Positions 10,505 through 34,324 of a stretch of DNA of 64,000 bases are shown here, one piece after another. Each line of letters opens with the position of its first letter. Within the stretch, counting starts at the first letter, position 1. The notes under the pieces were generated by a model. That model made no database searches and was not told the origin of the DNA. It saw only the letters and a list, made by a program, of their open reading frames with translations. This stretch comes from Anaeromyxobacter sp. (GTDB taxonomy: Bacteria; Myxococcota; Myxococcia; Myxococcales; Anaeromyxobacteraceae), in contig JASGJN010000019.1 in the NCBI GenBank assembly GCA_049840735.1, positions 18,169-82,168 on the forward strand, in the 5' to 3' direction. A program made the position numbers and the translations under genes.

Positions 10505-11559
10505 GCGACGGGCTCCCGCCCGCCCCGGCCACCGCGCCCGGCCCCACGCCGGAGGAGCGCGAGCGCGCCGCGCGCGTCGAGGCCGCACGGCGGCAGGGCT
10601 TCGTGCCGCTGCTGCTCCTGCTGGACCGGCTCTCGCCCGGCGCGCTGGACGTGGGCGGCGAGGCCGCGCCCGAGGCGGAGCGGATCCGCTTCCGCCACGA
10701 TCCCTCGCTGGCCTTCGCCCCCAGCGACGTGGTGGCGGTGAAGGAGCGGTCCGGCCCGGAGGAGGCGCAGCCGCGCTGGGACATCACCACCACCTTCCTG
10801 GGCGTGACCGGCACCGTCTCGCCGCTGCCGCCCTACCTGGCCGAGGAGGTGGCGCAGGAGGATCCGGCGGAGCAGCGCAACCGCGCCTTCCTGGATCTCT
10901 TCCACCACCGCGCCATCTCCTTCCTGGCCCGCGGGCTGCTCGCCTACGACCCCGCGGCGGCCCACGGCGCCGGCTCGCACGACCCCTGGTCGGGGCGGCT
11001 GCTCTCCTGGCTCGGGCTGGACGGCCCGCTCGACGGCGAGGCCGCGGCCGAGCTGGGGCTCTCCGACGCCGCCGCCCGCGCCGTGCTGCTCCGCGCCTCG
11101 GCGCTGCTGGCCGAGCGCGCCCTGACCGCCGACGGCCTGGAAGCGCTCCTCAATGACGCCATGCGCGAGGAGCTGGGGCCGGAGGGGCGCATCACGGTGG
11201 AGCAGTTCGTGGGCGCGTGGCTGCCCATCCCGCCCGACGACCGGACCAGGCTGGGCCAGGTGGCCAGCGGGCTGGGCACCTCCATGGTGCTCGGCTCGCG
11301 CGTCTTCGACCGCAGCTGCAGAATCGACGTGGTGGTGGGGCCGCTCGATCGCGGCGGCTACCAGCACTTCGCGCTGGACCTGTCGGTGCAGGGGCGGCTG
11401 CGGGCGGTGATCGCCCACGTCACGCGCGGTGACGTCGCCTACGACCTCGTCCTGGTGCTGGCGCCCGACGCCGCGCCGCCGGCGCAGCTCGGCGCCGCCC
11501 GGCTCGGGCGCGACGCGTGGCTGGGCCGGCAGGCGGCCCTGGCGCGGGTCCGGGTCTGA
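10501..11559 (+). CDS. tssG: TssG baseplate protein
   Basis: The GTG at 10501 overlaps the tssF stop (GTGA). FVPLLLLLDRL...RIRFRHDPSLAF...LGVTGTVSPLPPYLAEE is TssG-like. Confidence 0.85.
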   Translation: MSDGLPPAPATAPGPTPEERERAARVEAARRQGFVPLLLLLDRLSPGALDVGGEAAPEAERIRFRHDPSLAFAPSDVVAVKERSGPEEAQPRWDITTTFLGVTGTVSPLPPYLAEEVAQEDPAEQRNRAFLDLFHHRAISFLARGLLAYDPAAAHGAGSHDPWSGRLLSWLGLDGPLDGEAAAELGLSDAAARAVLLRASALLAERALTADGLEALLNDAMREELGPEGRITVEQFVGAWLPIPPDDRTRLGQVASGLGTSMVLGSRVFDRSCRIDVVVGPLDRGGYQHFALDLSVQGRLRAVIAHVTRGDVAYDLVLVLAPDAAPPAQLGAARLGRDAWLGRQAALARVRV

Positions 11560-11579
11560 CCAGGCGGGAGCGTTCGCAC

Positions 11580-12626
11580 GTGGGCCACCCCAACCTCGAG
11601 AACCGGACGCCGTACGCCTTCGAGCCCGTCTTCGTCTCCGACGAGGAGGGCCGGCCGCTGCTGGTCGCGGCGGTGAAGGGCACCTGGGACCTGGGCCCGG
11701 CCGTCCCGGCGCTGGCGGAGGAGCAGGCGCCGCTGGAGCTGGCCGGCGTGCCGCACGGCGAGGACCCCGCCAGCTCCAGCTGGAGGTACGAGCCCGAGGG
11801 CGGCTGGCTCAAGCCGGCCACCGACGTGGTGCTGGTGGGCAGCGCCGTCGCCCCGCGGCCGCGCACCGCCGAGCTGCTGGTGGCGCTGCAGGTGGGCGCG
11901 CTGCGCAAGGGCGTGCGGGTGCTGGGGGATCGCGCCTTCTACCGGTCGGTGGCGTCGGTGGGCATGACCGCGCCGGTCCCCTTCGAGCGGATCCCGCTGC
12001 AGTGGGAGCGCGCCTTCGGCGGCTGGGACCGCTCCAGCCCGGACGAGCGGAGGCACACCTGCGAGTTCCGCAACCCGGTCGGCCAGGCCTTCCGCGCCGG
12101 CGGCGCGCGCTTCGAGGACGGCGTCCGCTGCCCCAACCTCGAGGACCCGGCCCGCCCGTTCAAGGGCTGGGGCGACGCCCCGCCGCCGGCCGGCTTCGGC
12201 TTCGTCTCGCCGGACTGGGAGCCGCGGCGCAGGCTGGCCGGCACCTACGACCAGCGCTGGGAGGAGGAGCGGGCGCCGCTCCTGCCGCGCGACTTCTCGC
12301 GCCGCTTCCTCTCCGCGGCCTCCGCCGGGCTGGTGGCACCCGGCTACCTGCGCGGCGACGAGCCGGTGGCCGTGGCCGGGGTGACGGCGCAGGGGGGCCT
12401 GACCTTCAAGCTGCCAGGCTTCGAGCCGCCCAGGGTGAAGGTGATCCGGCGCAACGCCGCCGACGGGACCATCGCCACCCAGCTCGACACCGTCATCATC
12501 GACACCGACGCCATGAAGCTCTTCCTGATCTGGAAGGGCGAGGTGGTGCTGCAGCGCGAGCCGACCGAGGTGCAGTCGCTGGAGATCACGCAGGCCGGCG
12601 GGCCGGCCGCCCGGGACGCGGCGTAG
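11580..12626 (+). CDS. DUF2169-family protein (T6SS spike/PAAR accessory)
   Basis: GTG at 11580 with GGGAG 9 nt upstream. NLENRTPYAF...KPATDVVLVGSAVAP...VLGDRAFY...ERAFGGWD...AGTYDQRWEEERAPLLPRDF matches the DUF2169 pattern. Confidence 0.8.
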   Translation: MGHPNLENRTPYAFEPVFVSDEEGRPLLVAAVKGTWDLGPAVPALAEEQAPLELAGVPHGEDPASSSWRYEPEGGWLKPATDVVLVGSAVAPRPRTAELLVALQVGALRKGVRVLGDRAFYRSVASVGMTAPVPFERIPLQWERAFGGWDRSSPDERRHTCEFRNPVGQAFRAGGARFEDGVRCPNLEDPARPFKGWGDAPPPAGFGFVSPDWEPRRRLAGTYDQRWEEERAPLLPRDFSRRFLSAASAGLVAPGYLRGDEPVAVAGVTAQGGLTFKLPGFEPPRVKVIRRNAADGTIATQLDTVIIDTDAMKLFLIWKGEVVLQREPTEVQSLEITQAGGPAARDAA

Positions 12627-12643: not shown

Positions 12644-13108
12644 ATGCCTTCCAGCGTGGGCGTGAACAAGCTCTCCATCGTCAACGCCGACACCAACGGC
12701 GTGACGATCGCCTTCCCCGACGTGTGCAAGACCCCGAGCCCCGGCGGCCCGGTGCCCATCCCCTACCCGAACATCGCCAAGTCCTCCGACACGTCCAAGG
12801 GGACCAAGAAGGTGAAGGTGGAGGGAAAGCCGGTCTGCATCCAGGGCTCGACCTTCGCCATGTCCACCGGCGACGAGGCCGGCACCGCCGGCGGCGGCGT
12901 CGCGTCCAACAAGATCAAGGGGCCGGCCGAGTTCGTGAACTACTCCTTCGACGTGCAGCTGGAGGGGAAGGGGGCGGCGCGGTCGTTCGACCTGATGCTG
13001 CACAACCAGAAGAACACGCCGCCCTTCCCGGTGCTGCAGGGGCCGGTGATCGCGATCGGGAAGATGAAGGGCACGGAGAAGTGCCTGGTCTGCGAGAAGG
13101 AGCTCTAG
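12644..13108 (+). CDS. DUF4150 PAAR-like protein, stand-alone (no toxin extension)
   Basis: ATG at 12644 with an AGGAGCGAGG RBS. FPDVCKTPSPGGPVPIPYPNIAKSSD...VKVEGKP...STGDEAGTAGGGV is the DUF4150 signature. The protein is 154 aa and ends CLVCEKEL. Confidence 0.8.
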   Translation: MPSSVGVNKLSIVNADTNGVTIAFPDVCKTPSPGGPVPIPYPNIAKSSDTSKGTKKVKVEGKPVCIQGSTFAMSTGDEAGTAGGGVASNKIKGPAEFVNYSFDVQLEGKGAARSFDLMLHNQKNTPPFPVLQGPVIAIGKMKGTEKCLVCEKEL

Positions 13109-13111
13109 GCC

Positions 13112-13609
13112 ATGGCCCAGCGCGCGCGGAAGCCCGAGGTGCACCTGCTGGAGCGCGCGGCCGCCGCACCGGCGGTGGGCCGCGTGGTGTCGTTCGAGCG
13201 GGGCGTGGTCCGGGTGGAGCACGCCGGCCACACCGGCGGCCCGCTCCGCGCCCGCACCTCGGCGGCGCTGGACGACGCCGCGCTGCAGGCCGCGGCGCAC
13301 GGTCAGCAGGAGGCGCTGCTCGTGTTCGAGGGCGGCGACCCCGCCCGGCCGGTGGTGGTGGCGTTGCTCCGCTCCGAGACGCCGCTCACCGACGCGCTGC
13401 TGGCCGGCCCGCTCCCGCGCGCCGGGAAGACGGCGCGGCTGGACGGGAAGCGGGTGGAGCTGGAAGGGCAGGACGAGGTGGTCCTGAGGTGCGGGAAGGC
13501 CAGCCTCACGCTCCGGCGCGATGGCAAGGTGGTGCTGCGCGGGGTGAACGTGGTGACCCAGGCCGATCAGGTGCACAAGGTCAGGGGTGGAAAGGTGCAG
13601 ATCAACTGA
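13112..13609 (+). CDS. small gp5/VgrG-like protein (OB-fold-like N-terminus plus short beta-helix-like C-terminus; DUF6484-like, tentative)
   Basis: 165 aa. VGRVVSFERGVVRVEH...ALLVFEGGDPARPVVVALL is followed by VELEGQDEVVLRCGKASLTLRRDGKVVLRGVNVVTQADQVHKVRGGKVQIN, which resembles the VgrG/gp5 tip repeat. Confidence 0.5.
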   Translation: MAQRARKPEVHLLERAAAAPAVGRVVSFERGVVRVEHAGHTGGPLRARTSAALDDAALQAAAHGQQEALLVFEGGDPARPVVVALLRSETPLTDALLAGPLPRAGKTARLDGKRVELEGQDEVVLRCGKASLTLRRDGKVVLRGVNVVTQADQVHKVRGGKVQIN

Positions 13610-13634: not shown

Positions 13635-14768
13635 ATGGCCCATTCCCAGGGCGCACTCCCGATCACCGGCATCGGCCTCGCGTCGAGCCTCGGCGTCGAT
13701 GCCGTGGGCGCCTGCGCGGCCGCGCGGGCCGGGATCACCCGCGTCTCCGAGGGGGACGGCGCGTTCGTGGTGCTCGACCGCGAGGCCTTCAGCGTGGTCC
13801 CGGTCGCCGGCATGCCGGTGGGCAAGCTCACCACGGGATTCGCCGAGCTGGGGCGCTGGGTGCGCCTCGGCGGGCTGGGGCTGGGAGATCTGCTGCGCCG
13901 CCACCCGCTCACCCCGGCCGAGCTGGCCGAGACGGCGGTCCTGCTGGCGCTCCCGGGCGATCACCTGCTCACCGCCGCGGCCGCGCTCCGCAAGCAGCGA
14001 GGGGCTCCGGCGGAGCCAGGTGGCCCGACCTATCAGGAGCTCGTCCCCTACTATCGCAGCGAGCTGCCCGCCAAGCTGTTCCGCGCGGTGAGCCGGCCGG
14101 CGCCGGCGCATGCCGAGGTCTTCTTCGAGGACGAGCCGGGCTTCCTGCGGGCGCTGGTGCGGGCGCGCCAGCTGCTCGAGGAGCGCAGGGTGAGGCGCTG
14201 CCTGGTGGGCGGCATCGACTCGCTGCTCGAGCGGTCGTGGCTCGACGCAGCGTTCGAGCTGGGGCTCCTCAAGACCGCCACTCGTCCCACCGGGTTCATG
14301 CCCGGCGAAGCGGCCGCGTTCCTGCTGCTCGAGGGGGAGACAGAGGCACGGCGGGCGGAGCGGCCGGTGCTGGCGCGGCTGGAGGGGATCGAGGGGCGGC
14401 CCGAGGCTGAACGCGGGAAGGTGGTCGGCTCGAGAGGACGCGCGCTGGCGGAGCTCATCGGGGCCTCGCTGCGTCAGGCCTCTCGCCCCTGCAGCGGCTT
14501 CTACTGCAATCTCAACGGTGACTCCGGCCGCGCCCAGGAGTGGGGCTTCGCGCTGGTGCGCTTGCCGCAGGAGGCGCACCCGGCCGCCACCTTGCTACCG
14601 ACGCTCTCCTTCGGCGAGACGCGCAGCGCCTTCGGTCCGCTCGCCGCCTGCATGGCCGTCCGCGCCTTCGCGCGCAAGTACGCACCTTCCGACTCGCTCC
14701 TGGTCTGGCTCGCCTCCGAGGCGGGCGGGCGCGGGAGCTTCGTCGTCACGCGGGAGCGCCGAGCATGA
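13635..14768 (+). CDS. beta-ketoacyl-synthase/thiolase-like protein lacking the catalytic triad (copy 1)
   Basis: 377 aa with a KS-like layout (ITGIGLASSLG, VGGIDS, GFMPGEAAAFLLLE, FGETRSAFGPLAA). By-eye alignment puts FFEDEPGF at the A-C-x-S-G site, NLNGDS at HGTGT and GETRSAFG at GHxxGAAG. Confidence 0.7.
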   Translation: MAHSQGALPITGIGLASSLGVDAVGACAAARAGITRVSEGDGAFVVLDREAFSVVPVAGMPVGKLTTGFAELGRWVRLGGLGLGDLLRRHPLTPAELAETAVLLALPGDHLLTAAAALRKQRGAPAEPGGPTYQELVPYYRSELPAKLFRAVSRPAPAHAEVFFEDEPGFLRALVRARQLLEERRVRRCLVGGIDSLLERSWLDAAFELGLLKTATRPTGFMPGEAAAFLLLEGETEARRAERPVLARLEGIEGRPEAERGKVVGSRGRALAELIGASLRQASRPCSGFYCNLNGDSGRAQEWGFALVRLPQEAHPAATLLPTLSFGETRSAFGPLAACMAVRAFARKYAPSDSLLVWLASEAGGRGSFVVTRERRA

Positions 14769-15457
14769 GCGGGAACAGCGAACACACGCCCAAACCCGTC
14801 GAGATGAAGGGCGTGTTCGAGCGGAACGAGGAGTACCGCGACAACTGCCAGGGCGGGTGCAAGGGCGGCTACCACGGGCACCGCTGGGACGCGCACCACA
14901 TCCTGCCCTGCACGTCGTTCTCGGAGGCGAGCGCGTTCGTGCGCCAGTGCCTGGAGGCGACCGACTACGACATCAACAAGACCTACTCCATGTGCGGCCT
15001 CCCCCGGCTGACCGCGTTCATCCTCTACTTCCAGTCGGACAAGAGCATCCCGTTCGTGTTCGACCGGGAGCGGACGGTCACCATGCGCCGGTGGGGGAAG
15101 GTGGCGCAGTACCTCAAGGACCAGGGCAAGCCGGTCGTCTTCCCGGGAGAGCTGCCGGTGCACAACCCAGTGCACTGGGGGCACACCGACTACAACGTCC
15201 AGGTCGCCAAGTCGCTCAAGCAGAACGTGTTCAAGCAGATCATGGTCCGGGCGAGGCAGGAGAAGCACTTCAAGCCAGAGGAGATTCGGGCGCTCCTGGA
15301 AAAGGAGCGGCAGAGCTTCTGGAACCAACTCCAAGAAATCCCGCGCAAGCCCGGCGGGGGTGGGCTGACGGGAATCGAGAACAACCTCAGGCACCGATAT
15401 GACTCCGCCCGCGACGGCTGGTGGAAGCCGATGTGCATGACGGAGACCATCAGCTGA
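14765..15457 (+). CDS. AHH-family (HNH/EndoVII fold) nuclease toxin, copy 1
   Basis: The ATG overlaps the upstream stop (ATGA at 14765-14768). Motifs are RWDAHHILP, DYDINKTYSMCGLP and HWGHTDYN. The protein is 230 aa with no recognisable trafficking domain. Confidence 0.7.
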   Translation: MSGNSEHTPKPVEMKGVFERNEEYRDNCQGGCKGGYHGHRWDAHHILPCTSFSEASAFVRQCLEATDYDINKTYSMCGLPRLTAFILYFQSDKSIPFVFDRERTVTMRRWGKVAQYLKDQGKPVVFPGELPVHNPVHWGHTDYNVQVAKSLKQNVFKQIMVRARQEKHFKPEEIRALLEKERQSFWNQLQEIPRKPGGGGLTGIENNLRHRYDSARDGWWKPMCMTETIS

Positions 15458-15508: not shown

Positions 15509-16091
15509 ATGCCCTTCGTGCAGATCCTCGACGACCTTCGACGCCAAGACGGCCCGTTTCAAATCCGTCAAGGGGTTCGAGGACACGTTCGAGTTCCTGA
15601 TGGGAATCCCGGTAGCCGACCATTTCCCGTCCGATGCCACGTTCGAACGATGAGCGAGGACTTCCCGGACCGGATCGCCTTGCAGGACTTCCTGCCGAAT
15701 GAGGACAGCGTGCTCGTCGTGAGCGAGCGGGTGTTGCGGATCCTGGAGGCGGAGAAGGTTCAGCACCTCGAGTACCTTCCCGTCCGTGTCGTCAACCACA
15801 AGGGGCGCAAGGTCCCGGAGCCGTATTTCATCCTGAACCTCCATCCCTTCGTGGACTGCGTCGATCAGAAGCAGAACCAGGTTCCAGCTGAACGACGTGA
15901 ACCCGGACGTGTGGTACGGCGTCACCGACCTGACCCTCCGGGAGGACGCGGTCCCGGCGGACTACAAGCTCTTCGGCGTTCCTCGGATCCCGGGGCTGGT
16001 CATCGTCGAGCAGGAGCTGGGGGACAAGCTGAGGGGGGCCAAGCTGGAGGGCTTCAGGCTGGTCGAGCTTTCCAAGGCCGAGGAAATCTAG
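15509..16091 (+). CDS. Imm11 (DUF1629)-family immunity protein, copy 1, reading frame broken about 3 times
   Basis: DFPDRIALQDFLPNEDSVLVVSERVLRILEAEKVQHLEYLPV and the C-terminus VWYGVTDLTL...LEGFRLVEL parallel the intact paralogues at 28428 and 30159. Shifts lie near ~15530, ~15645 and ~15880. Confidence 0.6.
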
Positions 16092-16141: not shown

Positions 16142-16945
16142 ATGGAACCCATCTCCGAATGCTGTGAAGACCTGGTCGTCCTCCTGAACGCCCACGCCAC
16201 GGCCGCGGACAAGGCGCCGACGGTGGAGGACCGGGTAAGGGCCGCCGACGCCGCCTGCGCCTACTACCAGGGTGTGGGGATCTGCGAGCTGCTGCTGGAC
16301 GCCGAGGTGGATGCCTTCTTCCACCACTTCATCCGCTCGGCGCAGTCGCGCCGGTGGGTGCTGCAGCAGCGCCCTGGCCCTCTGGGCACGGTCCCATCCG
16401 TCTCCGGGATCATGAAGGCCAGCAACACGCGCGGACTGTTCGCGGCCATGGCGGCCGGCCAGTGGCGCCTGGCCGAGGACATCGCGCGCCTGTCCCCCGA
16501 CGCCTGGAGCGCGGCGGACGAGTACGAGGACGACTTCTGCTACGCGTCCTTTCTCCACGGCCACCTGCTCGGCGCCGCGCACGACCAGCTGGACGCGATC
16601 CTGGCGCGGTTCGAGAAGGCGCTGGAGGGCGGCGAGGCGGTCCGGCGGGACCTGTGCCGGGCGCTGCTGGCCAAGGAGGCCAGCGCCCTCCTGGCCGCGT
16701 TCGACGCGCTCATCGCCGAGCGGGACGAGCACCTGGCCAAGCTGCGCCAGGGGCCGATGTGCCGGGACTCGCTCTTCACGCCCTTCGCGTCGGTGTACGT
16801 GGAGGGGCTGGCCTGGCTGGCCCTGCTGGAGCGCGCCGGCGTCGCCACGCCGGCCGAGGTGGACTACTGTCCTGCGCTGGTGCGCACCACGGCCTTCGCG
16901 CCCTTCGTGCCCAGCTCCTTCCCGGGGTTGCCGCTGGAAGGCTGA
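16142..16945 (+). CDS. all-helical putative immunity protein (Imm49-like, tentative), paralogue 1
   Basis: 267 aa. It shares the pattern DEYEDDFCYASFL ... ALEGGEAVRRDLCRALL ... VYVEGLAWLALL with four other ORFs in the island. Confidence 0.5.
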   Translation: MEPISECCEDLVVLLNAHATAADKAPTVEDRVRAADAACAYYQGVGICELLLDAEVDAFFHHFIRSAQSRRWVLQQRPGPLGTVPSVSGIMKASNTRGLFAAMAAGQWRLAEDIARLSPDAWSAADEYEDDFCYASFLHGHLLGAAHDQLDAILARFEKALEGGEAVRRDLCRALLAKEASALLAAFDALIAERDEHLAKLRQGPMCRDSLFTPFASVYVEGLAWLALLERAGVATPAEVDYCPALVRTTAFAPFVPSSFPGLPLEG

Positions 16946-16961
16946 GCGCGCTGGAGGCGAC

Positions 16962-17766
16962 ATGGGTCGGATGTTCGAGGCGGCAGAAGACGTCGAGATC
17001 CTCCTGGCCAGCCACGTGGCCGCGGCTGCGCAGGCCCCGGAGCTGGCGGACCGGCTGACCTCGGCGGACGCGGCCAGCACCTACTACCAGGGCCTCGCCA
17101 TCTGCGAGCTCCTGCTCGAGCGCGACGCGGACGCGTTCTTCCACGACGCCATCCGCAGCGCGCAGTGCCGGCACTGGGTGCTCCGGCACCGGACCGGGCT
17201 TGGCGACCCGGCGCCGCTCGCGGGCATCCTCAAGGCCAGCAACACGCGCGGACTGTTCGCCGCGCTGCTCTCGCGGCAGTGGCGGCTGGCGGCGGCGATC
17301 GCGCAGCACGCGTCGACCGACTGGAGCAAGCGCGACGAGTACGAGGAGGACTTCCTCCACGCCCACTTCCTGCATCGCCGTCTGCTCGGCGCATCGCCCG
17401 GCGAGCTCCAGGAGAATCCTGCGACGCTTCGAGGTGGCGGTGCAGGGCGGCGAGGCGCCGCGGCTCGACCTCTGCCAGGCGCTCCTGGTGCGCGATGCGG
17501 CGGCGGCGGAGCAGGCGTTCGCGGCCCTCATCGTGGAGCGCGGGCAGGAGCTCCAGAAGCAGAAGCGGGCTGGCCTCGACGCCGACAGCCTGTATCTGCC
17601 GTTCTCCCGGGTCTACACGGAAGGGCTGGCCTGGCTGGCGCTGCTCGATGAAGCAAGGATCGGGATCGCGGGTGAGCTGGACTACTGTCCCCAGGCGGCC
17701 CGGGCCGCGGTCTACGCGCCCTTCGTGCCAGGCCCGTTCCCATCGGAGCCGCTCCCGGGGAGCTGA
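16962..17766 (+). CDS. all-helical putative immunity protein (Imm49-like), paralogue 2, frameshift near 17412
   Basis: Tandem to paralogue 1. It carries DEYEEDFLHAHFL, AVQGGEAPRLDLCQALL and VYTEGLAWLALL, split over ORFs 16962-17651 and 17200-17766. Confidence 0.5.
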
Positions 17767-23336: not shown

Positions 23337-23350
23337 CCGGAGGACACCCC

Positions 23351-25207: not shown

Positions 25208-25224
25208 CGTGCCGGTAATCGAAA

Positions 25225-26376
25225 ATGGGAGGTCCAGACATGTCGAGCAGGCAGATCGGGACGGCGGCGGTGATCGGCCTCATGGGGGTGTGGGCCGCGT
25301 GCACCAGCGACGGAGGGGGTGCGAGCCCGACCGTGCTGGTGAGCGGCGGGCATCGCCAGAGCTGCGCGGTGATCGAAGGGCGTGCGTCCTGCTGGGGCAG
25401 GAACGATTACGGGGCTCTGGGTGACGGAACCCACACCAGCCGGAGCATGGCGGCCGGCGTGCTCGGGTTGGATGCCGGCGTGACGCGCATCGGCACGGGC
25501 GGGGACCATGCGTGCGCCGTGCAGGGAGGCGCACTCTTGTGCTGGGGCTCAAACGTCGACGGGCAACTCGGCACCGGCGCGGATACGGAGAGCGTGAGCA
25601 CGCCTGCAGCGGTCGCAGGAATCGGTGAGGTGCAGTCCCTGGCGCTCGGGTGGGACCACACCTGCGTCGTGGATGCGGCCGCCGGGAAGTGCTGGGGCAA
25701 CAACCATGGTGGTCAGCTCGGCATCAGTGGGGTGGGGTTGAGCCGTAGTCCGGTGACCGTCCCCGGGCTGGAAGCCGGGGTGACCGCGATCACGGCGGGA
25801 TATCGCCACAGCTGTGCCGTGGTGAACGGGGCGGCGAAGTGCTGGGGCCTGAACGATCACGGACAGCTCGGAAACGGAAACACCACCAACAGCACCACTC
25901 CTGTCCAGGTCGAAGGGCTCACGAGCGGGGTGACGGCCATCGCTGCAGGCTACGCCCATAGCTGCGCCGTCGTGAGCGGAGCAGTGAAGTGCTGGGGTTG
26001 GAACGGTGAGGGCGGGCTGGGCGATGGGACGCTCACCGAGCGCAGTGCGCCAGTGCAGACGCTGGGGCTGACGAACGGCGTGACGGCAGTAGCCGCAATG
26101 GCAGGCAGCGGGTGTGCGCTGGTGGGTGGAGCCGTGAAGTGTTGGGGCGACAACGAGGACGGATCGGTTGGGGATGGGACGAACGTGAACCGGGTCGAGC
26201 CTGTGCAGGTGGAGGGGCTGGAGAGCGGTGTCAAGGCACTCGCGGCTTACGGCTACACTGCGTGCGCGAACGCATCGGATGTGGTGAAGTGCTGGGGCCT
26301 GAACCAGTTCGGCCAGGTCGGGGACGGCAGCGCGACCAGAAGCCTGAACGCACCCGTTCCCGTCACTGGCTTGTAG
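25225..26376 (+). CDS. RCC1-repeat (beta-propeller) lipoprotein
   Basis: The lipobox is VWAACTS. About seven repeats of H.CAV..G...CWG.N..GQLG.G follow. Confidence 0.8.
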   Translation: MGGPDMSSRQIGTAAVIGLMGVWAACTSDGGGASPTVLVSGGHRQSCAVIEGRASCWGRNDYGALGDGTHTSRSMAAGVLGLDAGVTRIGTGGDHACAVQGGALLCWGSNVDGQLGTGADTESVSTPAAVAGIGEVQSLALGWDHTCVVDAAAGKCWGNNHGGQLGISGVGLSRSPVTVPGLEAGVTAITAGYRHSCAVVNGAAKCWGLNDHGQLGNGNTTNSTTPVQVEGLTSGVTAIAAGYAHSCAVVSGAVKCWGWNGEGGLGDGTLTERSAPVQTLGLTNGVTAVAAMAGSGCALVGGAVKCWGDNEDGSVGDGTNVNRVEPVQVEGLESGVKALAAYGYTACANASDVVKCWGLNQFGQVGDGSATRSLNAPVPVTGL

Positions 26377-26414
26377 GCGGACGCGAGCCATGGAGTCGAT
26401 GGCCGGGTGATCGG

Positions 26415-27506
26415 ATGAGCACGCTCGCGATCCGAGCCATCGGGCTCTCGACCCCGCTCGGCGGCGGGGTGCAGGCGTGCGCCGCGGCCCGTGCCGGGAT
26501 CTCTCGGCCTGGCCCGGCGCCTGACGTGACCGTCATGTTCCCGGGGGACGAGGAGCCGCAGCCGGTCACGGTGCACGCCCACCCGACGGCGACGCAGGGG
26601 TTCACGGGGGCGGGCCGGCTCATCGCGCTGCTGCAGGAGGCGTTGATCGACCTGGTGTACTCGGTGCCCGCGACGACGTGGGCGAGCCGCACGCGGCTGT
26701 TCCTCGCCCTGCCCGATCCGCTCTGGCGCGAGCCGGAGACGCTGGACGAGGGCGAGCGTGAGCTGCCGGCCGAGGAGCGGATCGCTGCGCTCGGGCAGAA
26801 GGTGGTGAAGGGCGTGTGCGCGGCGACCGGGCTGCCGCTCCAGCAGCTCACGCCTTCGTTCCACGGCGGGGACGAGCTGGCCTTCTCGCACGCGCTGGTC
26901 GCCGCAGCGCGCGCCCTGGAGGCCCGGCAGCTCGAGACCGCCCTGGTCTGCGCCGCGGACAGCCTGGTCGGCGCAGACACGCTCGAGCTGTTCGCCGCAG
27001 AGGGGCGGCTCAAGCACGGCGACCAGCCGGTCGGGTTCACTCCCGGCGAGGCGGCCGGCGCGGTGCTCCTGACGGCGCCGGCTCGCGGCCAGGCGTCGTT
27101 CACGGTCGCGCCGCCCGCCATCGCTGTGGACGCGTGGCGCTGGGGTGCCGAGGCCCCCTCCGATGGCCGGAAGCTGGCGGGTTGCTTGGTGAGCGCGGCA
27201 GCCGCGGTCCCACCGAACATGCCGCTCGCGTTGGTCTCGGATTGCGACGGGGAGACCCACCGGGCGCGCGAGCTCGGGCTGGCGCGGGTCCACCTGAAGC
27301 GGCGCCACCCTGGGCTGGCGGAGTCCGAGGTCAGATACCCGGCGCTAGCCTTCGCGCGGACCGGCGTGGCCTCCGGGCTGCTCGGCCTGGCGGCTGCGCG
27401 GCATGCGCTCTGGCGCGAGAAGTCGGCGCCGCGCCACTTCATCGTGGCGAGCAGTGCCGACGACGGGAAGCGGAGCGCCTTCCTGGTGACGAGGACGACG
27501 GCATGA
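26415..27506 (+). CDS. beta-ketoacyl-synthase/thiolase-like protein lacking the catalytic triad (copy 2)
   Basis: 363 aa. It carries IRAIGLSTPLGGGVQACAAARAGIS, LVCAADSLV and GFTPGEAAGAVLL. GGDELAF lies at the Cys site, SDCDGET at the first His motif and FARTGVASG at the second. Confidence 0.7.
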   Translation: MSTLAIRAIGLSTPLGGGVQACAAARAGISRPGPAPDVTVMFPGDEEPQPVTVHAHPTATQGFTGAGRLIALLQEALIDLVYSVPATTWASRTRLFLALPDPLWREPETLDEGERELPAEERIAALGQKVVKGVCAATGLPLQQLTPSFHGGDELAFSHALVAAARALEARQLETALVCAADSLVGADTLELFAAEGRLKHGDQPVGFTPGEAAGAVLLTAPARGQASFTVAPPAIAVDAWRWGAEAPSDGRKLAGCLVSAAAAVPPNMPLALVSDCDGETHRARELGLARVHLKRRHPGLAESEVRYPALAFARTGVASGLLGLAAARHALWREKSAPRHFIVASSADDGKRSAFLVTRTTA

Positions 27507-28411
27507 AGGCCTCCCTTCCCTCCCAGCTCAGGACGCCGGCCCAGATGAACACGGAGTTGGCGCGCCAGCTCAAGGGTGTCCTGACGCTCACGCTGGAGCA
27601 GAACCGGTGGACGCTCCGGGAGCTGGTGCAGAAGCTCCAGGCGCTGCCTTACCCGCCGCCGGAGACGGAGCCCGAGCCGGAGCGGGCGGGCACCGCCAAG
27701 GAGACCCCAGGAGGACACGTCTCCTCCGCCGGGTTCGCCACGGCGGTGCTGGCGAAGGATGCGAGCAAGTACGCGCGGCGCGGGGTCCGGTACATCAAGG
27801 AGCAGATCGGCCGCGGGGTGTACCAGAAGTTCGATCACCTCGACACGATTCGTTCGATCCCGAAGGAGATCATCGAGGACGTCAAGAAGGCGGCGAAGTT
27901 CCCCGGCGGCCCGAAGCACAACTTCAACCTGCGCTTCGGGATGAGCTACCCGTACACCTGGCGGGCGCATCACATCCTGCCGGGGTCGGCGTTCTACTAC
28001 GAACGGAAGAGGGGCCCCTGCTTCAAGCCCGAGCACTTCGCGATCCTGCTGCAGACCGACTACAACGTGAACGGGGGCCACAATATCATCCTGCTGCCGT
28101 TCGAGAATTGGGCCGTGCTCGTGCACGCGCTCGTCCAGCACCCGAGCGATCACCCGACCTACACGCAGGCGGTGATGGAGAGGCTGGCGGAGGTCGCAAG
28201 GAAGATCGACGCTCTCATGAAGGCGAAGAAGCACGATCAGGCAAAGGAGGACTTCCGGAGGGAACTGCTCGAGGCGGAGAGCGACTTCTGGGACCTTCTC
28301 GTCCGGCTCGGGAAGAAGGTGACGGCCGGGCTCATCAGCGGACGGCAGTATCAATCCGATTTCGTGAAGTACGCGACCCAGGGTGGAGAAAGGCAGTCCG
28401 CGCTGAAGTAG
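27503..28411 (+). CDS. AHH-family nuclease toxin, copy 2
   Basis: An ATGA overlap with the upstream gene lies at 27503-27506. Motifs are WRAHHILP, DYNVNGGHNIILLP and HPSDHPTYT. The ~160-aa N-terminal region is unrelated to copy 1. Confidence 0.7.
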   Translation: MKASLPSQLRTPAQMNTELARQLKGVLTLTLEQNRWTLRELVQKLQALPYPPPETEPEPERAGTAKETPGGHVSSAGFATAVLAKDASKYARRGVRYIKEQIGRGVYQKFDHLDTIRSIPKEIIEDVKKAAKFPGGPKHNFNLRFGMSYPYTWRAHHILPGSAFYYERKRGPCFKPEHFAILLQTDYNVNGGHNIILLPFENWAVLVHALVQHPSDHPTYTQAVMERLAEVARKIDALMKAKKHDQAKEDFRRELLEAESDFWDLLVRLGKKVTAGLISGRQYQSDFVKYATQGGERQSALK

Positions 28412-28427
28412 GCGTTGGCTGAACGGT

Positions 28428-29012
28428 ATGAACTACTGGATCATTGCGAGGGATGCACCGGAGGGAGGTCTCATCGACTCCTACCCCGCGGACGGGCCGG
28501 AGGACTTCCTGTGGGATCGCGGAGAGCCGCTCGCGGCAGCCTATCCCCCGAATGCGTGCGTGCAGTTCTCAGACAACTTCCCTGACGCACGACAGCTGGA
28601 GGACTTCCAGCCCAACATCCTGAACGCGCTCATCGTGTCTCCGAAGGCGCAGGAGGTGCTCCAGGGGCTGGAGCTGAAGAACGTCGAGTACCTCCCGGTG
28701 GCGATCCGGGACCATCGGGACGAGGTGATCGCCTCCGACTACGCCTTCGTGAACGTGCTCGGAAGCCAGCCCGCGATCGACATGGAGAGGTCGGTCTACC
28801 GGATGGGCTCGCTCGACAAGACGCAGATAACCCGAATCAAGAACCTCGTGCTCCAGCCTCAGGCCATCGCCCCGGACGCGAAGCTCTTGCGCTGCACCAC
28901 GTACATGACGCTCTTCCTGATCCGCGACGACGTGCGCGAGGCGTTCGAGCGCGCGCAGCTCACCGGCTACCAGCTCATCCAGCCGGACGGCTGGGACGGC
29001 CTCATCATCTGA
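28428..29012 (+). CDS. Imm11 (DUF1629)-family immunity protein, copy 2
   Basis: Intact 194 aa with NFPDARQLEDFQPNILNALIVSPKAQEVLQGLELKNVEYLPV...LTGYQLIQ. Confidence 0.7.
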   Translation: MNYWIIARDAPEGGLIDSYPADGPEDFLWDRGEPLAAAYPPNACVQFSDNFPDARQLEDFQPNILNALIVSPKAQEVLQGLELKNVEYLPVAIRDHRDEVIASDYAFVNVLGSQPAIDMERSVYRMGSLDKTQITRIKNLVLQPQAIAPDAKLLRCTTYMTLFLIRDDVREAFERAQLTGYQLIQPDGWDGLII

Positions 29013-29015
29013 CCC

Positions 29016-29800
29016 ATGGACTTCGACCTCCGGCAGCTGCGGGCAGACGCGATCGACCGGATCCCCACCTCCTGCGCGAGTTCCGCCCCGATGCGCCGCG
29101 GAAGGAGCTGGTGAAGCTGGTGGGGGACCTCGTCCACGGGTTCCACATCCTGGCGGCCGCGGGCCTCGTGGTGGACGGCAGCACGGAGAAGTTCTTCCTG
29201 AACCTGGCGCGGTGCGCGGAGAACGGGCTGCGGCTGCGCAGGCTCCTCGTCGGGCGCGGGGAGGTGCCGCCGCCCGCGTCAGATGACGTGCCGCTCAAGG
29301 CCGCCGTGGCCGCCGCGGACTGGGGCCGGGCCGCGGCCATCGTGGAGCACTCGGCGAAGCAGCGGGACCTGGCGGTCCAGGAGTACGAGGACGAGTTCCT
29401 TTGGGCCCGGGTGCTGCAGCTGCTGACGGTCCCCGGCCCGGACGCCGCCGAGCTCGATGCGGCGCTGGCGCGGCTGGAGGAGCTCGACGCCGCGAGCTAC
29501 GGCGACCGGGTGGCGGTGGCCCGGGCCATCTTCGCCAAGGACCAAGAGGCGCTGGAGCAGGCGGTGGTCGGAGCGTCCCAGGTGTACGCGCTCGCGACCG
29601 AGAAGAAGGCTGCGGCCTTCGGGACCCCGGTCACCAAGTTCGCGCCGCACCGGCACCTCTGGCTGGAGGGGCTGGCCCTGCTCCGGCTCGGGGAGCGGGT
29701 CGGGCCTCAGGTCCGCCAGCAGCTGCGGTACTGCCCGCGGCTGGCGCGGGGGGAGAACACGACCCAGTACGCGGGTGACTACGCCATCCCGGTGGCGTGA
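29016..29800 (+). CDS. all-helical putative immunity protein (Imm49-like), paralogue 3, frameshift at a C-run near 29063
   Basis: The sequence from ATG 29016 reads MDFDLRQLRADAIDRI, then continues in ORF 29111-29800. It carries QEYEDEFLWARVL and HLWLEGLALLRL. Confidence 0.5.
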
Positions 29801-30144
29801 GGGTCGTGGACGCGCCGGAGCAGGGGAACGCGACGAGGTTCCGGCGGCGGCTGGTGATCCTGCAGGCGCCGTGGAACATCAACCGGAAGCAGAACGTGGT
29901 GCTCTTGCCGAGCGAGGAGGCGGTGGCCGCGATCGCGGCCTTGCCGGCGCACTGTCCGTGGGATACGGCGTCGCATCCGCAGTACTCGGATGCGCTCGAG
30001 AGAGAACTGGCTGATGTCAGTCGCGCGCTCGACGAAGCCGCCGATCAAGGCGTACACGACAAGGTGAATGCCGTGAGAGCCGCTCTCGAGAGAACCGAAA
30101 CCCGCCTGCTCGCGCGCATCACGCGGATGCGAGGCGCACTGTGA
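29797..30144 (+). pseudogene. orphan 3' remnant of an AHH toxin gene (AHH motif missing)
   Basis: WNINRKQNVVLLPSEE...HCPWDTASHPQYSD keeps the N..N..LLP and H...H..Y parts of the AHH core. It lacks the upstream AHH and starts at the stop of the preceding gene. Confidence 0.55.
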
Positions 30145-30158
30145 GCCAAGGAGGCGTG

Positions 30159-30743
30159 ATGGCAGACCCCAGCTTCTACCTCAGATCACCTGAGGCGAGA
30201 CCCGAAATGGGGTCTGGTGCAGTCCTGCCGGGGGTCAGCCGGACCTATGACCTCGCCAAAGGGGTGCGGATGGGGAGCAACTTCCCTCCGACCGTCGTGT
30301 TCGAGATAGCCAAGCGGTCCGGCGATGTGTTGACGGACTTCCTGCCCAACACGAATCGGGTGATCATGGCCTCGGAGCGCGTGGCGGAGTTCCTCCGCGC
30401 CGAACTCCCCGCCTCGGATGAAATCGAGTTCTTGCCGTTTGGACTCAAGAACAAGAAGGGCCGCCTCGTCCAGACGCCCAGGTACTGCTTGGTGAACCCG
30501 CTGCGCAAGGTGGAGTGCCTGGATCGCAAGCGCTCGAAGTACGCTGCCGCGGATACGGGCGAGCTCGTCATGATGGACGAGCTGCACCTCGCGGAGGACC
30601 GCATCCCGCCCGACACGAAGCTCTTCCGGCTGGCGGAGCTGCCCACCTGCATCCTGTACCGAGCCGACCTGGTCGAGAAGATCCGCGCGGCGGGGTTCAC
30701 GGGCTTCACGGTGGCGGCCCCCGGCGACAATCTCACGCTCTGA
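30159..30743 (+). CDS. Imm11 (DUF1629)-family immunity protein, copy 3
   Basis: ATG at 30159 with an AAGGAGG RBS 5 nt upstream. The sequence reads DVLTDFLPNTNRVIMASERVAEFLRAELPASDEIEFLPF...FTGFTV. Confidence 0.7.
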   Translation: MADPSFYLRSPEARPEMGSGAVLPGVSRTYDLAKGVRMGSNFPPTVVFEIAKRSGDVLTDFLPNTNRVIMASERVAEFLRAELPASDEIEFLPFGLKNKKGRLVQTPRYCLVNPLRKVECLDRKRSKYAAADTGELVMMDELHLAEDRIPPDTKLFRLAELPTCILYRADLVEKIRAAGFTGFTVAAPGDNLTL

Positions 30744-30767
30744 CCCTGGAGTGGACTTGGAGGCGCC

Positions 30768-31531
30768 ATGAGCCACAGCTCCCTCGCGACGGCGATCGTC
30801 AACATCGAGTACCTGCTCGAGGAGCGGCTGAACGAGGCCAGGCCGGGAGCCCCCGACGCGGCGGCCTGGTTGGAGATCGCCACGCACTTCCGGCGCCTCG
30901 CCTGCGGTGCGATCTTCATGGACCTCGACGCCGATGAGGCTGTCGATCACCTGTACCGCAGTGGCAAGGTCTACCTGGCAGCTGCTCGAGGCGCGCGAGC
31001 GGGCGCCGGTGGATCCCGTACTACCTGACCACCAACTTCGCGGCGCCGTTCCTGGACGCGCTGGCAGCGGGCGCCTGGGACCTGGCCGAGCGGATCGCGC
31101 GGGCCATGCCGACGCAGTGTGATCCAGGGCAGGGCGAGTACCTGGAGGACTTCAGCTACTTCGCCATCCTCCGCTCGCTGCTGCTGTCGCCGGCCGACGA
31201 GGAGGGCCGAGCCAAGTCGCTGGTGGACTTCGAGCAGGCGCTGCAGGGCGGGGAGTCGGCGCGGTTCGAGGTCGCGAAGGCGCTGTGCGCAAAGGATGAG
31301 GCGCAGCTGGCCCGGGCGCTGGCCGGCCGGCAGCAGGCGTGGAAGGAGGCGGCAGCGGAGAGCCGGGATCCATACGACCGGGAGACGACCGGGAAGCTCT
31401 TCCTCGAAGGGGTGGCGATGTGCCGGCTGGCGGGCCGGCTGGGGTTGAAGGTGCCGGCCAGGATTCCGTCGGTCCCCCGTGAACTGCTCCGAGCCCAGCA
31501 CGAGACCTTCCCCGAGGAGTTCGAGATCTGA
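30768..31531 (+). CDS. all-helical putative immunity protein (Imm49-like), paralogue 4, two apparent frameshifts (~30978, ~31012)
   Basis: GEYLEDFSYFAILRSL, ALQGGESARFEVAKALC and LFLEGVAMCRL are split over ORFs 30768-31028, 30907-31122 and 31106-31531. Confidence 0.5.
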
Positions 31532-31618
31532 CGCCAGCAGCTCCGGTACCGCCCGAGGCTGGCGCGGGGGGAGAACAGGACGCAGTACACGGGAGATCAC
31601 GCCATCCCGGTGGCGTGA
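31532..31618 (+). pseudogene. remnant of the 3' end of an Imm49-like gene (paralogue-3 type)
   Basis: The nucleotide stretch cagcagctccggtaccgcccgaggctggcgcggggggagaac...atcccggtggcgtga parallels 29711-29800 (QQLRYCPRLARGENTTQYAGDYAIPVA*). Confidence 0.55.
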
Positions 31619-31639
31619 GGAGCGGGCCGCGGGTTCCCT

Positions 31640-31765
31640 ATCCTGCTGCCGTTCGAGAACTGGGCGGTGCTAGTGCATGCGCTGATCCAGCACCCCAGCG
31701 ATCACCCGACGTACACGCAGGCGGTGATGAAGCGGCTGGGGGAGATCGCGGACGAGATCGACGGT
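31640..31765 (+). pseudogene. remnant of an AHH toxin gene (toxin-2 type, from the LLP motif onward)
   Basis: ILLPFENWAVLVHALIQHPSDHPTYTQAVMKRLGEIADEID closely parallels 28090-28215 of toxin 2 at the nucleotide level. No AHH motif or start codon is present. Confidence 0.6.
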
Positions 31766-31900
31766 CGCGCGTACAGGCCTGCCCAGGTCCGCAGCCGCGG
31801 CCGCCGCCCATTCCCGTCGCGGTCAGCGCCGTGGTCTCTGCCGGCAGGATCTCGATGGGCAGGTTGCCCACGATCCCGCTCGAGTGGTTCCGGAGCCACA
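31765..31900 (-). pseudogene. inverted remnant of the 3' end of a Cys-rich-repeat lipoprotein gene
   Basis: The minus strand reads VGNLPIEILPAETTALTATGMGGGRGCGPGQAC. This parallels GNLPIEIAPAGTTALTGTGMGGGRGCGAGQAC at 25050-25160 on the plus strand. Confidence 0.6.
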
Positions 31901-31918
31901 GGTCAGGAGGGGAGGGTC

Positions 31919-32146
31919 ATGTCGACGTGGCAAAGAGGTGTTGCTGTGGCCATGCTCCTGGGGGCGTGGGCGGGCTGTGCCAGTGACTGGAGCGGGTCGG
32001 GGACGAGCCTGCTCATCAGCGGTGGGCACCGGCAGAGCTGCGGAGCGGTGAACGGCGCGGCGTACTGCTGGGGCAACAACACCTACGGGGCGCTCGGGGA
32101 TGGAACGACAATCACCCGCGGTACGCCGGCGCCGGTCTCCGGGTGA
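31919..32146 (+). pseudogene. N-terminal fragment of an RCC1-repeat lipoprotein gene (75 aa)
   Basis: MSTWQRGVAVAMLLGAWAGCAS...ISGGHRQSCGAVNGAAYCWGNNTYGALGDGT parallels the first ~80 aa of the gene at 25225-26376, then stops. Confidence 0.6.
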
Positions 32147-32283
32147 AGGTCGCCACGGCTCCACCGGCATGTGCCGGTCCATCCCGCGCGAGCATCGACG
32201 TCGGCCGCCGAGTCGCGGTAGCGTCTCCGACGAGCCCTTCGCAGGGAGCGACGCGGCCCACCCGGCGTGAGAGGTGACCCCGC

Positions 32284-33022
32284 ATGATGCGCCCCGACGT
32301 GATCCTCGAGGACGCCCGCTACCTGGCCCAGCAGGCGGAGAAGGCGCTGGCCACGGCGCCTCGGCCGGCGGACCGCGAGCAGCTGCTCTCGGAGCTGTCC
32401 GAGCGCCGCCACGTGGCGGGGGTGGCTGCGCTGCTCGCCACCGGGGACGCCGCGGCCTTCCGGCAGGAGCTGGCCGCGGCCGGCGCGGCGCGGGTGGAGC
32501 TGCTCAGGCTGCCGGCGCAGCTCAGCCGCGCTCCGGGGTACCTGCAGCGCGCCAGCCATCTGGCCCCGTTCTTCGACGCCCTGGTGGCCGGCGCGGACGG
32601 GCTGGCGGCCGAGGTCGCGCGCCTCTCGCCGCCGGCCTGGCGGGAGGACGACGAGTTCGAGGATGACTTCTGGTACGCCCGCTTCCTGGCGGCGGTGGTG
32701 CTGGGTCAGCCGGCCGAGGCCGCCGCCGCGCTGCAGGGGCTGGCCCGCGCCTGCGGCCCGAATCCCACGGCGCGCCACGACCTCTGCGCCGCGCTGCTGG
32801 CCCGCGACGGCGCGGGCTTCGGCAAGGCCCTGCGCCAGCTGGTGGCCGAGCGGCAGTCGGAGCTGCTCGACCTGGACGAGACGCCCCGCCCTGAATCCCG
32901 ATCGCCACTTCGTGGACAAGCAGGTCTTCGTGGAGGGGCTGGCGTGGCTCTGGCTGGGGCGCGAGCTCAGGTTCGAGGCGCCGACGGCCCTGCTGCCGGC
33001 CGCAGCGCGGCGGGCGCAGTAG
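32284..33022 (+). CDS. all-helical putative immunity protein (Imm49-like), paralogue 5, frameshift near 32888
   Basis: DDEFEDDFWYARFL, ARHDLCAALLARD and VFVEGLAWLWLG are present. The C-terminus is in ORF 32663-33022. Confidence 0.5.
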
Positions 33023-33030: not shown

Positions 33031-34324
33031 CTACTCCCCGAACCCGCGCCCCGGCAGCCTCCCCGCCAGGCCCCGCGCCGCCGCCAGCTCCTCGCGCTGT
33101 CGCTGCGTGAGCGCGTCCCAGGTCACTGCCGCCTGGCCGCGCGAGCGGATGGCCAGCTCCAGCGCCAGCGCCTCCCGCCGCCGCGCCGGTCCCTCCGACA
33201 GCTCGCGCAGGAGGCCGCCGGCGCTCCAGGGGGCGCCGCGCAGCCAGCGCTGGCCAGGCGCGAGCCGCTGGCGGGCCTCCTGCCACCAAACGGAAACCGC
33301 CTCCGGCGCCGGCGCGGGCAGCTCGGCCTCGGGGCCGTAGCCCGGCTCCGCCCCGTCCTCTTGCTCCGGATCCCAGCGCTCGGGCGCGCCCAGGTGGGCG
33401 GGCGTGAGCGGGAGCCCGGTGATGGCGGCGAAGGCCTCCAGCGCCAGCGGCGCCAGCTTCCCGTCGCGCAAAAGCGGCAGCAGCGCCTCGGCCGCGCTCA
33501 CCTGGCCGCTGAAGCCCAGCGCGAAGGCGGCCGCGGCGGCGTGCTCCGGCTCGCGCAGCGCAGGGGTGAGCGCGGCAGCGGAGCGGGCGTCGCCGGAGAG
33601 CCCCAGCAGCAGCGCCGCGCTGGCGAAGCCCGGCCCGCGGGCGGCCACGGTGGCCTCGCAGGCGGACCAGGCGCCGGGGTGGCCCAACGCCATCCCGCTC
33701 TCCAGCGCCGCCGCCCGCACCTCCGGCTCCTCCGAGCGGTAGCCGCGCTCCAGCGCCAGCGGCGAGAGCCGGCCGCGGAAGGCGCGCGCGAGGCGCAGCG
33801 CCAGCGCCTGCTGGACAGGATCGTCCGCCGCGGCCAGCCCATCCAGCGGGAGCGCGGGATCGACCCCCCGCGCCGCCAGCACCTCCAGCAGGTCCGGCTG
33901 CGCCGCGCCGGCCGCCAGGCCCGCCAGCCGCTGCGCCAGCCCCTCCACCGGCGCGACCGCCAGCCCGCGCCGCAGCGCGCGACGGGGCTCGTCCTCGGCA
34001 GCGGCCAGCGCCTCCAGCACCGCCGGCGTGAAGTCGCCGTCCTCCGAGCAGAGCAGGGCGAAGGCCGCCGCGAAGACCGCGCCCGGCTCGTCCCCGCCCA
34101 GCGCCGGGACCAGCAGCTTCTCCGCCACCGCGGCCCCGCCCAGCACCAGGCCGTCGAGGTGGGCCAGCAGCCGCCCCTCGGGTCCGTCGGCAATCTCCTC
34201 CAGCGTGTACTCGGGCGACCGGAGCGCCTCCTCCCACTGCTGGAAGAGGAAGGCGGCGTCCTCCAGGTGCTCCTCCTGGATGTCCCAGCGGGGCGGGGGT
34301 CGGTTCTGAATCCGTGGCCGTCAC
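33031..34324 (-). CDS. HEAT-repeat protein, TIGR02270-like (tentative); start uncertain, frameshift at a C-run near 34290
   Basis: The frame is open upstream of ORF 33031-34146 (RWDIQEEHLEDAAFLFQQWEEALRSPEYTL...AHLDGLVLGG) but has no in-frame start. A GTG at 34324 lies in the adjacent frame. The protein is Ala/Leu-rich and repeat-like throughout. Confidence 0.5.

Follow-up and report, generated by a model that had tools for sequence, protein, structure and literature searches.

A 64,000-nucleotide stretch of DNA from Anaeromyxobacter sp. (assembly GCA_049840735.1, contig JASGJN010000019.1, positions 18,169 to 82,168; hereafter the window) carries a split type VI secretion system (T6SS) locus. 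Within this locus stand two copies of one gene pair, each made of a ketosynthase-like (KS-like) gene and a gene for a toxin of the AHH family, and the second of these copies is the subject of the present analysis. The core genes for TssC (7163-7738), Hcp (7806-8300) and TssF (8750-10504) lie upstream of the cassettes, and those for ClpV (42210-45044) and Fha (44939-46465) follow about 30 kb downstream. In the second copy, the stop codon of KS2 (26415..27506, forward strand; 363 aa; PRK06147/TvpD family, NCBIfam NF004798 E=1.5e-32) and the start codon of AHH2 (27503..28411, forward strand; 302 aa; a putative HNH/EndoVII nuclease toxin, Pfam AHH PF14412 1.7e-10) share the letters ATGA at 27503-27506. 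An intact 194-aa Imm11 (DUF1629) gene (28428..29012, forward strand; Pfam PF07791, 26.3 bits against a cutoff of 22.1) starts 17 nt past the AHH2 stop codon. These two coupled open reading frames (ORFs) and the Imm11 gene behind them had been described in an earlier note on this DNA, and all of the coordinates are confirmed. The fourth cassette member is a 229-aa Imm49-like gene (29111..29800, forward strand), which was recognized by iterative hidden Markov models (HMMs). Pfam gives no match on this 229-aa protein, and an iterative HMM seeded with it recovers the Pfam-annotated Imm49 genes of related loci.

The first copy is headed by a set of spike accessory genes. On the forward strand, its order runs from a DUF2169 (TvpA-type) chaperone gene (11517..12626; Pfam PF09937 1.6e-84) through a stand-alone 154-aa DUF4150 PAAR-like spike tip (12644..13108; Pfam Tox-PAAR-like 5.2e-42) and a DUF6484 (TvpC-type) gene (13112..13609; Pfam PF20093 1.5e-13) to KS1 (13635..14768; 377 aa; NF004798 1.4e-41) and AHH1 (14765..15457; 230 aa; sub-threshold Pfam AHH match, E=0.012). 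It ends with an Imm11 gene that is frameshifted near 15870 (15509..16088; Pfam Imm11 on the N-terminal part, matches in two frames) and two to three Imm49-like genes or remnants (16220..17766; Pfam Imm49 1.6e-8 and HMM matches). The KS1 and AHH1 ORFs (13635-15457) likewise overlap by ATGA, and KS1 and KS2 are 31% identical over 217 residues (E=8e-15), so the description of the pair at 26415-28411 as a second, diverged copy with the same coupling holds. A TIGR02270-family gene for a HEAT-repeat T6SS accessory protein (33034..34320, reverse strand; NCBIfam TIGR02270, 253 bits against a cutoff of 206.8) ends the array of the second copy. The window thus sets two KS-like/toxin pairs against one gene each for DUF2169, PAAR-like, DUF6484 and TIGR02270, all of them between TssF and ClpV/Fha. 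The second copy has no PAAR-like, DUF2169 or DUF6484 gene of its own; it lies 13 kb from the set of the first copy, in the same T6SS locus. An HMM that finds VgrG in related loci gave no VgrG-like ORF in the window, and a vgrG may sit elsewhere in the genome.

Both KS-like proteins match the NCBIfam model NF004798/PRK06147, with residues 1-359 of KS2 aligned to model positions 3-342 at 113 bits and KS1 scoring 143 bits. These scores lie under the NCBI equivalog cutoff of 342 bits, and the canonical Rhizobiaceae members of PRK06147 themselves reach just 202-226 bits. On these profile scores, KS2 and KS1 are best regarded as diverged relatives of PRK06147 and not as equivalogs. An exhaustive profile search shows how large the family is, with 12,076 representative clusters at E<=1e-3, of which 3,347 reach E<=1e-30. 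As a lone query, KS2 gave nothing significant in Pfam (sub-threshold ketosynthase matches) or in a single-sequence search of the PDB. A profile built from 61 KS-like family sequences matched FabF structures at 3.5e-11. Furthermore, the AlphaFold2 model of KS2 (pLDDT 92.6, pTM 0.93) has as its best PDB matches in Foldseek the pairs of ketosynthase and chain-length factor together with FabF (E~1e-16, TM about 0.72).

The motifs GGDELAF, SDCDGET and FARTGVASG are all present in KS2, and the profile alignment to Thermus thermophilus FabF (1j3n) bears out the earlier reading of Asp-Glu at the nucleophile position. The catalytic Cys column falls on the His of the family motif G-H-A-G-G; KS2 has Glu154 there, preceded by Asp153. 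The two catalytic His columns are occupied in KS2 by Cys277 and a Val, neither of which is conserved across the family. In the sequences examined, the former Cys column holds His, Glu, Pro or Arg, and never Cys. The Cys-His-His triad (or its His/Asn variant) required of an active beta-ketoacyl-acyl carrier protein (ACP) synthase is therefore missing. Because Glu stands at the Cys column and non-conserved residues other than His stand at both His positions, KS2 is a pseudo-enzyme, which has retained the ketosynthase fold and lost the catalytic triad. Asp-Glu occupies the former Cys position in both KS1 and KS2, though the nearest relatives of KS2 keep Gly-His. This shared pair of residues was considered as a sign of a common partner and rejected as weak, since the position is variable in the clade and Gly-Glu is common among the relatives of KS1; the match may be a coincidence.

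The toxin of the second copy carries the motifs WRAHHILP, DYNVNGGHNIILLP and HPSDHPTYT, and its identity as an AHH protein is confirmed by Pfam (41.3 bits against a gathering cutoff of 22.3). The AHH motif begins at residue 43 of AHH1 and at residue 155 of AHH2 (residues 155-157), where a region of about 145 aa precedes the core. The two toxins can be aligned only over the 54-residue AHH core, at 31% identity, which agrees with the original observation that they are alike in this core alone. Among 37 aligned toxins, H156, H157, P199 and H217 (AHH2 numbering) are invariant and N194 and H213 nearly so, and both AHH1 and AHH2 retain every invariant residue. AHH2 has no PAAR-like match in Pfam, and its single-sequence AlphaFold2 model (pLDDT 39) is unusable. 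By analogy with the homologues of Myxococcus xanthus described below, AHH2 is presumably a DNase toxin and Imm11 its immunity protein.

Two features of the toxin N-termini emerged from their alignment. Many toxins with short N-termini begin with a similar M-x(2-5)-[ED]-H-[VIF] motif, and the toxins with long N-termini related to AHH2 have in common the stretch 'H..S..P..AVLAK..Y..RG'. Both motifs are candidate recognition elements. No consistent complementarity was found between the charge of the KS-like proteins and that of the toxin N-termini.

To what extent is the pairing of KS-like protein and toxin conserved? A scan of species-representative genomes yielded 46 related loci, mostly from Myxococcota (Archangium, Myxococcus, Corallococcus, Pyxidicoccus, Sorangium and Anaeromyxobacteraceae) with a few from other phyla, in which genes were assigned by iterative HMMs. 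The best relative of KS2 among the scanned genomes is just 46% identical. The cassette of KS-like, AHH, Imm11 and Imm49-like genes is found in about 40 of the 46 loci, and an Imm49-like gene is present in nearly every cassette that has the other three. The toxin lies directly 3' of the KS-like gene in 35 of 41 cassettes, with a 4-bp overlap in 9, other short overlaps in 2 and gaps of 0-30 nt in 24. The order is permuted in the other 6, five of which have toxin and Imm11 before the KS-like gene and one an Imm49-like gene between KS-like gene and toxin. The adjacency of KS-like gene and toxin is thus supported as a conserved arrangement, beyond chance.

The surroundings of the cassettes tie them to the T6SS. 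KS-like homologues occur in T6SS loci beside DUF2169, PAAR-like and DUF6484 genes, and the TIGR02270 gene holds the same relative position in the related loci L004 and L010 as in the window. Genomes carry several diverged copies of the KS-like gene, each tied to a toxin-immunity cassette and often distant from the core genes. A PAAR-like or DUF2169 gene lies within 8 kb of 25 of 42 cassettes; the 17 that have neither nearby include the second copy of the window, and 3 of them sit at a contig end. The cassettes without nearby spike genes tend toward longer toxin N-termini, with a median motif position of 137 compared with 82 (Mann-Whitney p=0.015). Fusions of a TIGR02270-like HEAT domain with the KS-like domain occur in L023, L028, L029 and L035. 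L016 (Myxococcus eversor) has this fusion as well, in a single 1026-aa ORF (6633-9710) that holds HEAT, KS-like and AHH domains and in which the KS match ends about 45 residues early. This read-through into the toxin frame is probably an indel artefact or a pseudogene and not a true fusion.

The co-phylogeny of the cassette parts was assessed from normalized local-alignment similarities over 42 cassettes by Mantel correlations and partial tests, in which the similarity scores of the short, variable toxin N-termini are noisy. KS similarity correlates with that of the toxin N-terminus (r=0.34), the toxin core (0.38), Imm11 (0.46) and, most strongly, the Imm49-like protein (0.65; all p=0.001). 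Several results weigh against a co-evolving pair of KS-like protein and toxin. The correlation between KS and toxin N-terminus drops to a partial r of 0.06 (p=0.1) when the Imm49-like protein is controlled, and the one between KS and Imm49-like holds at 0.53-0.60 under control for any of the other parts. The first copy adds to this: the nearest loci of KS1 are L017, L027 and L037, and those of its toxin and immunity genes are L039, L044, L041 and L030. The toxin core and Imm11, in turn, keep a correlation of 0.43 with KS controlled. The partial tests separate two modules, one of KS and the Imm49-like protein and the other of toxin core and Imm11. In the second copy, all four parts have the identical nearest loci L004, L010 and L007, a pattern that indicates inheritance of the whole cassette.

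On these similarity comparisons, the co-phylogeny shows linked inheritance rather than specific co-evolution of KS-like protein and toxin. The earlier note had read the second copy as a functional, co-evolving pair of adaptor and cargo and proposed to compare KS-like and toxin phylogenies for congruence. That comparison did not set the KS-toxin pair apart, as the KS-like protein tracks the Imm49-like protein best; what stands of the reading is the adjacency beyond chance, the membership of KS2 in a family of proposed adaptors and the presence of two KS-like/toxin pairs beside one set of the other spike accessories. The Imm49-like protein covaries with the KS-like protein and not with the toxin, and it may itself serve as an accessory factor instead of conferring immunity.

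The idea of an adaptor encoded beside its cargo has been published before, and the locus reveals no new kind of system. From gene neighborhoods, Liu et al. (2020; PMC7714669) proposed PRK06147 as the fourth class of T6SS adaptors: 74% of 407 homologues adjoin DUF2169, the toxins downstream are mainly Tox-GHH2 (54.5%) and AHH (23.6%), and many clusters consist of PRK06147 and an effector alone. Sachar et al. (2025; PMC11883445) defined a DUF2169 'synteny type A' with a DUF6484 gene, a thiolase-like gene and an armadillo-like repeat gene, and killing by the type A cluster of Proteus mirabilis needs every gene of the cluster. Monlezun et al. (2026; PMC13373197) named PA0098 TvpD and, by modeling, assigned it a co-chaperone role at the PAAR-like spike tip; the Class I and II Tvp systems of that study accompany PAAR-effector fusions.

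KS2 and KS1 resemble PRK06147, PA0098 and TvpD in their size of about 350-380 aa, their ketosynthase fold, the lack of a catalytic Cys and their place upstream of nuclease toxins, which include AHH in the published family. They also resemble them in being encoded with DUF2169, DUF6484, DUF4150 PAAR-like and HEAT/TIGR02270 genes in T6SS loci, where the family is proposed to act as adaptor or co-chaperone. The members of the Class II Tvp set, namely TvpA (DUF2169), TvpC (DUF6484), TvpD (PRK06147) and a DUF4150 PAAR, are all found at 11517-14768. The PAAR of this set is not fused to an effector domain, and no adjacent cognate vgrG was detected within the window by the VgrG HMM. The gene downstream in the reference systems encodes PAAR and toxin as one fusion protein, such as Tse7 or PefE, whereas here a 154-aa PAAR-like protein is accompanied by a separate toxin without PAAR. 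The locus departs structurally from the published Class II on one point alone, its stand-alone PAAR-like protein with the toxin as its own gene. Other differences from TvpD are the gene order, the absence of DUF2169, PAAR-like and DUF6484 genes from the second copy, the replacement of the family G-H motif by D-E in both window copies, and scores far under the equivalog cutoff.

A closer parallel comes from M. xanthus, in which four homologous AHH toxins are DNases, are neutralized by DUF1629/Imm11 and depend on the T6SS for kin discrimination (Wang et al. 2025; PMC12077131). Their variable N-terminal 40-70 residues are needed for the kin-discrimination phenotype and not for nuclease activity (PMC12077131). 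In data set S2 of that study, every toxin gene is immediately preceded by a gene listed as 'hypothetical' whose product has 354-385 aa, with a 4-bp overlap in locus 2 (PMC12077131). The Toxin1-4/Imm1-4 loci of M. xanthus DK1622 (MXAN_0050/0049 and paralogues) share with the window the DUF4150 (154 aa), DUF6484 and TIGR02270 genes, the 354-385-aa gene, an AHH toxin of 258-302 aa, a DUF1629/Imm11 protein of about 194 aa and an Imm49-like gene. The Imm11 gene of the second copy equals MXAN_0049 in length. The M. xanthus loci differ in that each has a PAAR, whereas the second copy has none nearby. A search with an alignment of 36 Myxococcota KS sequences returned just 22 proteins and no M. xanthus entry, and the link to M. 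xanthus was made through the cluster members of a profile match. This KS-profile match, P0239 (1.9e-88), is 40% identical to KS2 and heads a cluster of at least 90% identity in which the locus-2 proteins of Myxococcus sp. MxC21-1 and NMCA1 are found; the DK1622 locus-2 protein itself is absent from the listed members.

Other T6SS adaptors offer a functional comparison. Like the KS-like proteins, DUF4123 (Tap/Tec) and DUF1795 (Eag) proteins are encoded immediately upstream of the cognate effector, in several diverged copies within auxiliary clusters; they are non-secreted, as is proposed for the KS-like proteins. Their folds are unrelated, and their role rests on direct binding and genetic evidence, compared with P. 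mirabilis transposon data and structural models for the KS-like family. The best structural matches include chain-length factors (KSβ) of type II polyketide synthases (1tqy, 6kxf_B), which likewise have no active-site Cys. They pair with an active ketosynthase in polyketide clusters, and no such partner or cluster is present here.

Taking these comparisons together with the cassette survey, we regard the locus as an auxiliary T6SS effector cassette and lean, on balance, toward KS2 as a non-secreted, cargo-specific adaptor for AHH2. Adaptor plus cargo is the leading reading because the KS-like family has already been proposed as a T6SS adaptor or co-chaperone. The joint duplication of KS-like gene and toxin, with the other accessory genes single, fits a cargo-specific adaptor, without proving it. 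Cassettes with a KS-like gene and a toxin and with no spike genes nearby recur in other genomes, which also speaks for cargo specificity. We infer that KS2 would bind its own toxin, most likely through the variable N-terminal region, and that the two copies would share one spike. The toxin would be passed to the stand-alone DUF4150 PAAR-like tip, held by DUF2169 and templated by DUF6484 and VgrG, and would leave the cell on the spike while KS2 remains behind. The second copy would use the single DUF2169, PAAR-like, DUF6484 and TIGR02270 set of the locus, and the ATGA coupling would keep adaptor and cargo co-produced.

Several observations count against this adaptor reading, in addition to the partial correlations, the split ancestry of the first copy, the permuted gene orders and the family scores under the cutoff. 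The published AlphaFold model has the PAAR domain of Tse7 lying in a groove made by PA0098 and DUF2169, with the toxin domain facing away from it (PMC13373197). In M. xanthus, each toxin needs its own cognate DUF4150 PAAR (PMC12077131). Because of this requirement, and by analogy, the sharing of one PAAR-like protein by two toxins in the window seems not assured.

The main competing explanation, which we consider possible though not probable, is that the role of KS2 ends with co-chaperoning the PAAR-like (DUF4150) tip, without any contact with the toxin. The toxin would bind PAAR-like or VgrG through its own N-terminus, and the adjacency would reflect operon history and whole-cassette inheritance. 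The modeled placement of PA0098 and DUF2169 round the PAAR domain speaks for this explanation, and specificity in M. xanthus lies at least partly with the PAAR. It also accommodates the lack of covariation between KS and toxin N-terminus once ancestry is controlled and the permuted order in 6 of 41 cassettes, and the fusions of HEAT (TIGR02270) and KS domains tie the KS-like protein to the constant accessory set and not to the toxin. However, 17 of 42 cassettes, the second copy among them, keep KS-like gene and toxin with no PAAR-like gene nearby. The window, moreover, duplicates the KS-like gene with the toxin and not with PAAR-like, DUF2169 or DUF6484, and two KS copies that are only 31% identical are hard to explain for a single PAAR-like protein.

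An extension of the cargo-specific adaptor reading can be offered more tentatively, and we regard it, too, as possible though not probable. In these systems of the Myxococcota type, the dead ketosynthase would be the cargo selector of a modular spike, one PAAR-like, DUF2169, DUF6484 and TIGR02270 set would serve several KS adaptors, every adaptor would load its own, different AHH toxin without PAAR, and the Imm49-like protein would be a co-adaptor instead of an immunity protein.

The remaining explanations are much weaker. It is improbable that the second pair is a decaying, functionless duplicate, even though neighboring orphan modules are truncated or frameshifted and the copy has no PAAR-like, DUF2169 or DUF6484 gene of its own: KS2, AHH2 and Imm11 are full-length with starts matching those of their homologues, all invariant toxin residues are kept, and the same 'orphan' architecture is intact in 16 other cassettes. 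Slightly less probable still is a role like that of TsmK (AsaB), a T6SS pseudo-ketosynthase of Acinetobacter that is required for membrane-complex assembly and has been described as largely Acinetobacter-specific (PMC10564176). On that view, KS2 would stabilize the membrane complex and have nothing to do with effector loading. Both are ketosynthase-fold pseudo-enzymes recruited by the T6SS, but TsmK, by its description and genomic context, is membrane-associated, single-copy in the core cluster and not linked to toxins. The KS-like genes, in contrast, are multi-copy, diverged, linked to toxin cassettes and often far from core genes, and their family is associated with DUF2169 and PAAR and not with TssM/TssL. 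Least credible of all is that KS2 has condensing or acyltransferase activity, with which it would make or modify a lipid or polyketide or acylate the toxin, as the fold and the database name '3-oxoacyl-ACP synthase' might suggest, since the Cys and both His positions are lost as described above and no ACP, fatty-acid or polyketide genes are seen beside the cassette in the window.

The choice between cargo selection and chaperoning of the PAAR-like tip matters beyond this locus. With about 3,300 representative clusters at E<=1e-30, PRK06147/TvpD is a large family and one of the least understood among T6SS accessories. With one spike-accessory set and two diverged KS-like/toxin pairs, the window is a compact natural test case for the two roles. 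In addition, the M. xanthus counterparts of the locus are amenable to genetics and provide a simple colony-boundary read-out.

Downstream of the second cassette, the forward strand of 29797-32850 is a decayed array of two truncated AHH C-termini, an intact Imm11 gene and frameshifted or truncated Imm49-like genes. The first orphan module opens with an AHH C-terminal remnant that has no AHH motif (29797..30144; tblastn match to AHH2 residues 181-248, AHH HMM positions 122-221 only), followed by an orphan Imm11 gene (30141..30743; Pfam Imm11 9.5e-11) and a frameshifted Imm49-like gene (30768..31531; Pfam Imm49 on 31106-31528, N- and C-terminal parts in two frames). The second opens with an AHH2-like toxin C-terminus (31640..31807; 67% identity to AHH2 residues 196-253), followed by a further Imm49-like remnant (32284..32850; Imm49 HMM 3e-39 on an ORF starting at 32278). 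Both show the orphan-module layout of polymorphic toxins, in which toxin C-terminal remnants are each followed by immunity genes, and polymorphic-toxin loci typically contain decayed arrays of this kind. In the first copy, the Imm11 gene is frameshifted although AHH1 keeps all invariant nuclease residues; either the assembly is in error here, or another Imm11 gives cross-immunity, or the toxin is inactive.

The two cassettes are separated by about 8 kb (19003-26376) of other genes. One of these codes for a 1064-aa fusion of a Ser/Thr kinase with an nSTAND1 (STAND) NTPase, and others for a PEGA-domain protein and for a protein of 618 aa with cysteine-rich repeats of the myxobacterial type. An RCC1-repeat protein is also encoded here, its ORF ending 38 nt before KS2. 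A scan of 23-32.5 kb for promoters and terminators gave nothing useful. Base composition also changes, with a GC content of 0.68-0.69 across 24000-32000 compared with about 0.73-0.78 in the flanks and a strongly positive GC skew, which is consistent with acquired DNA.

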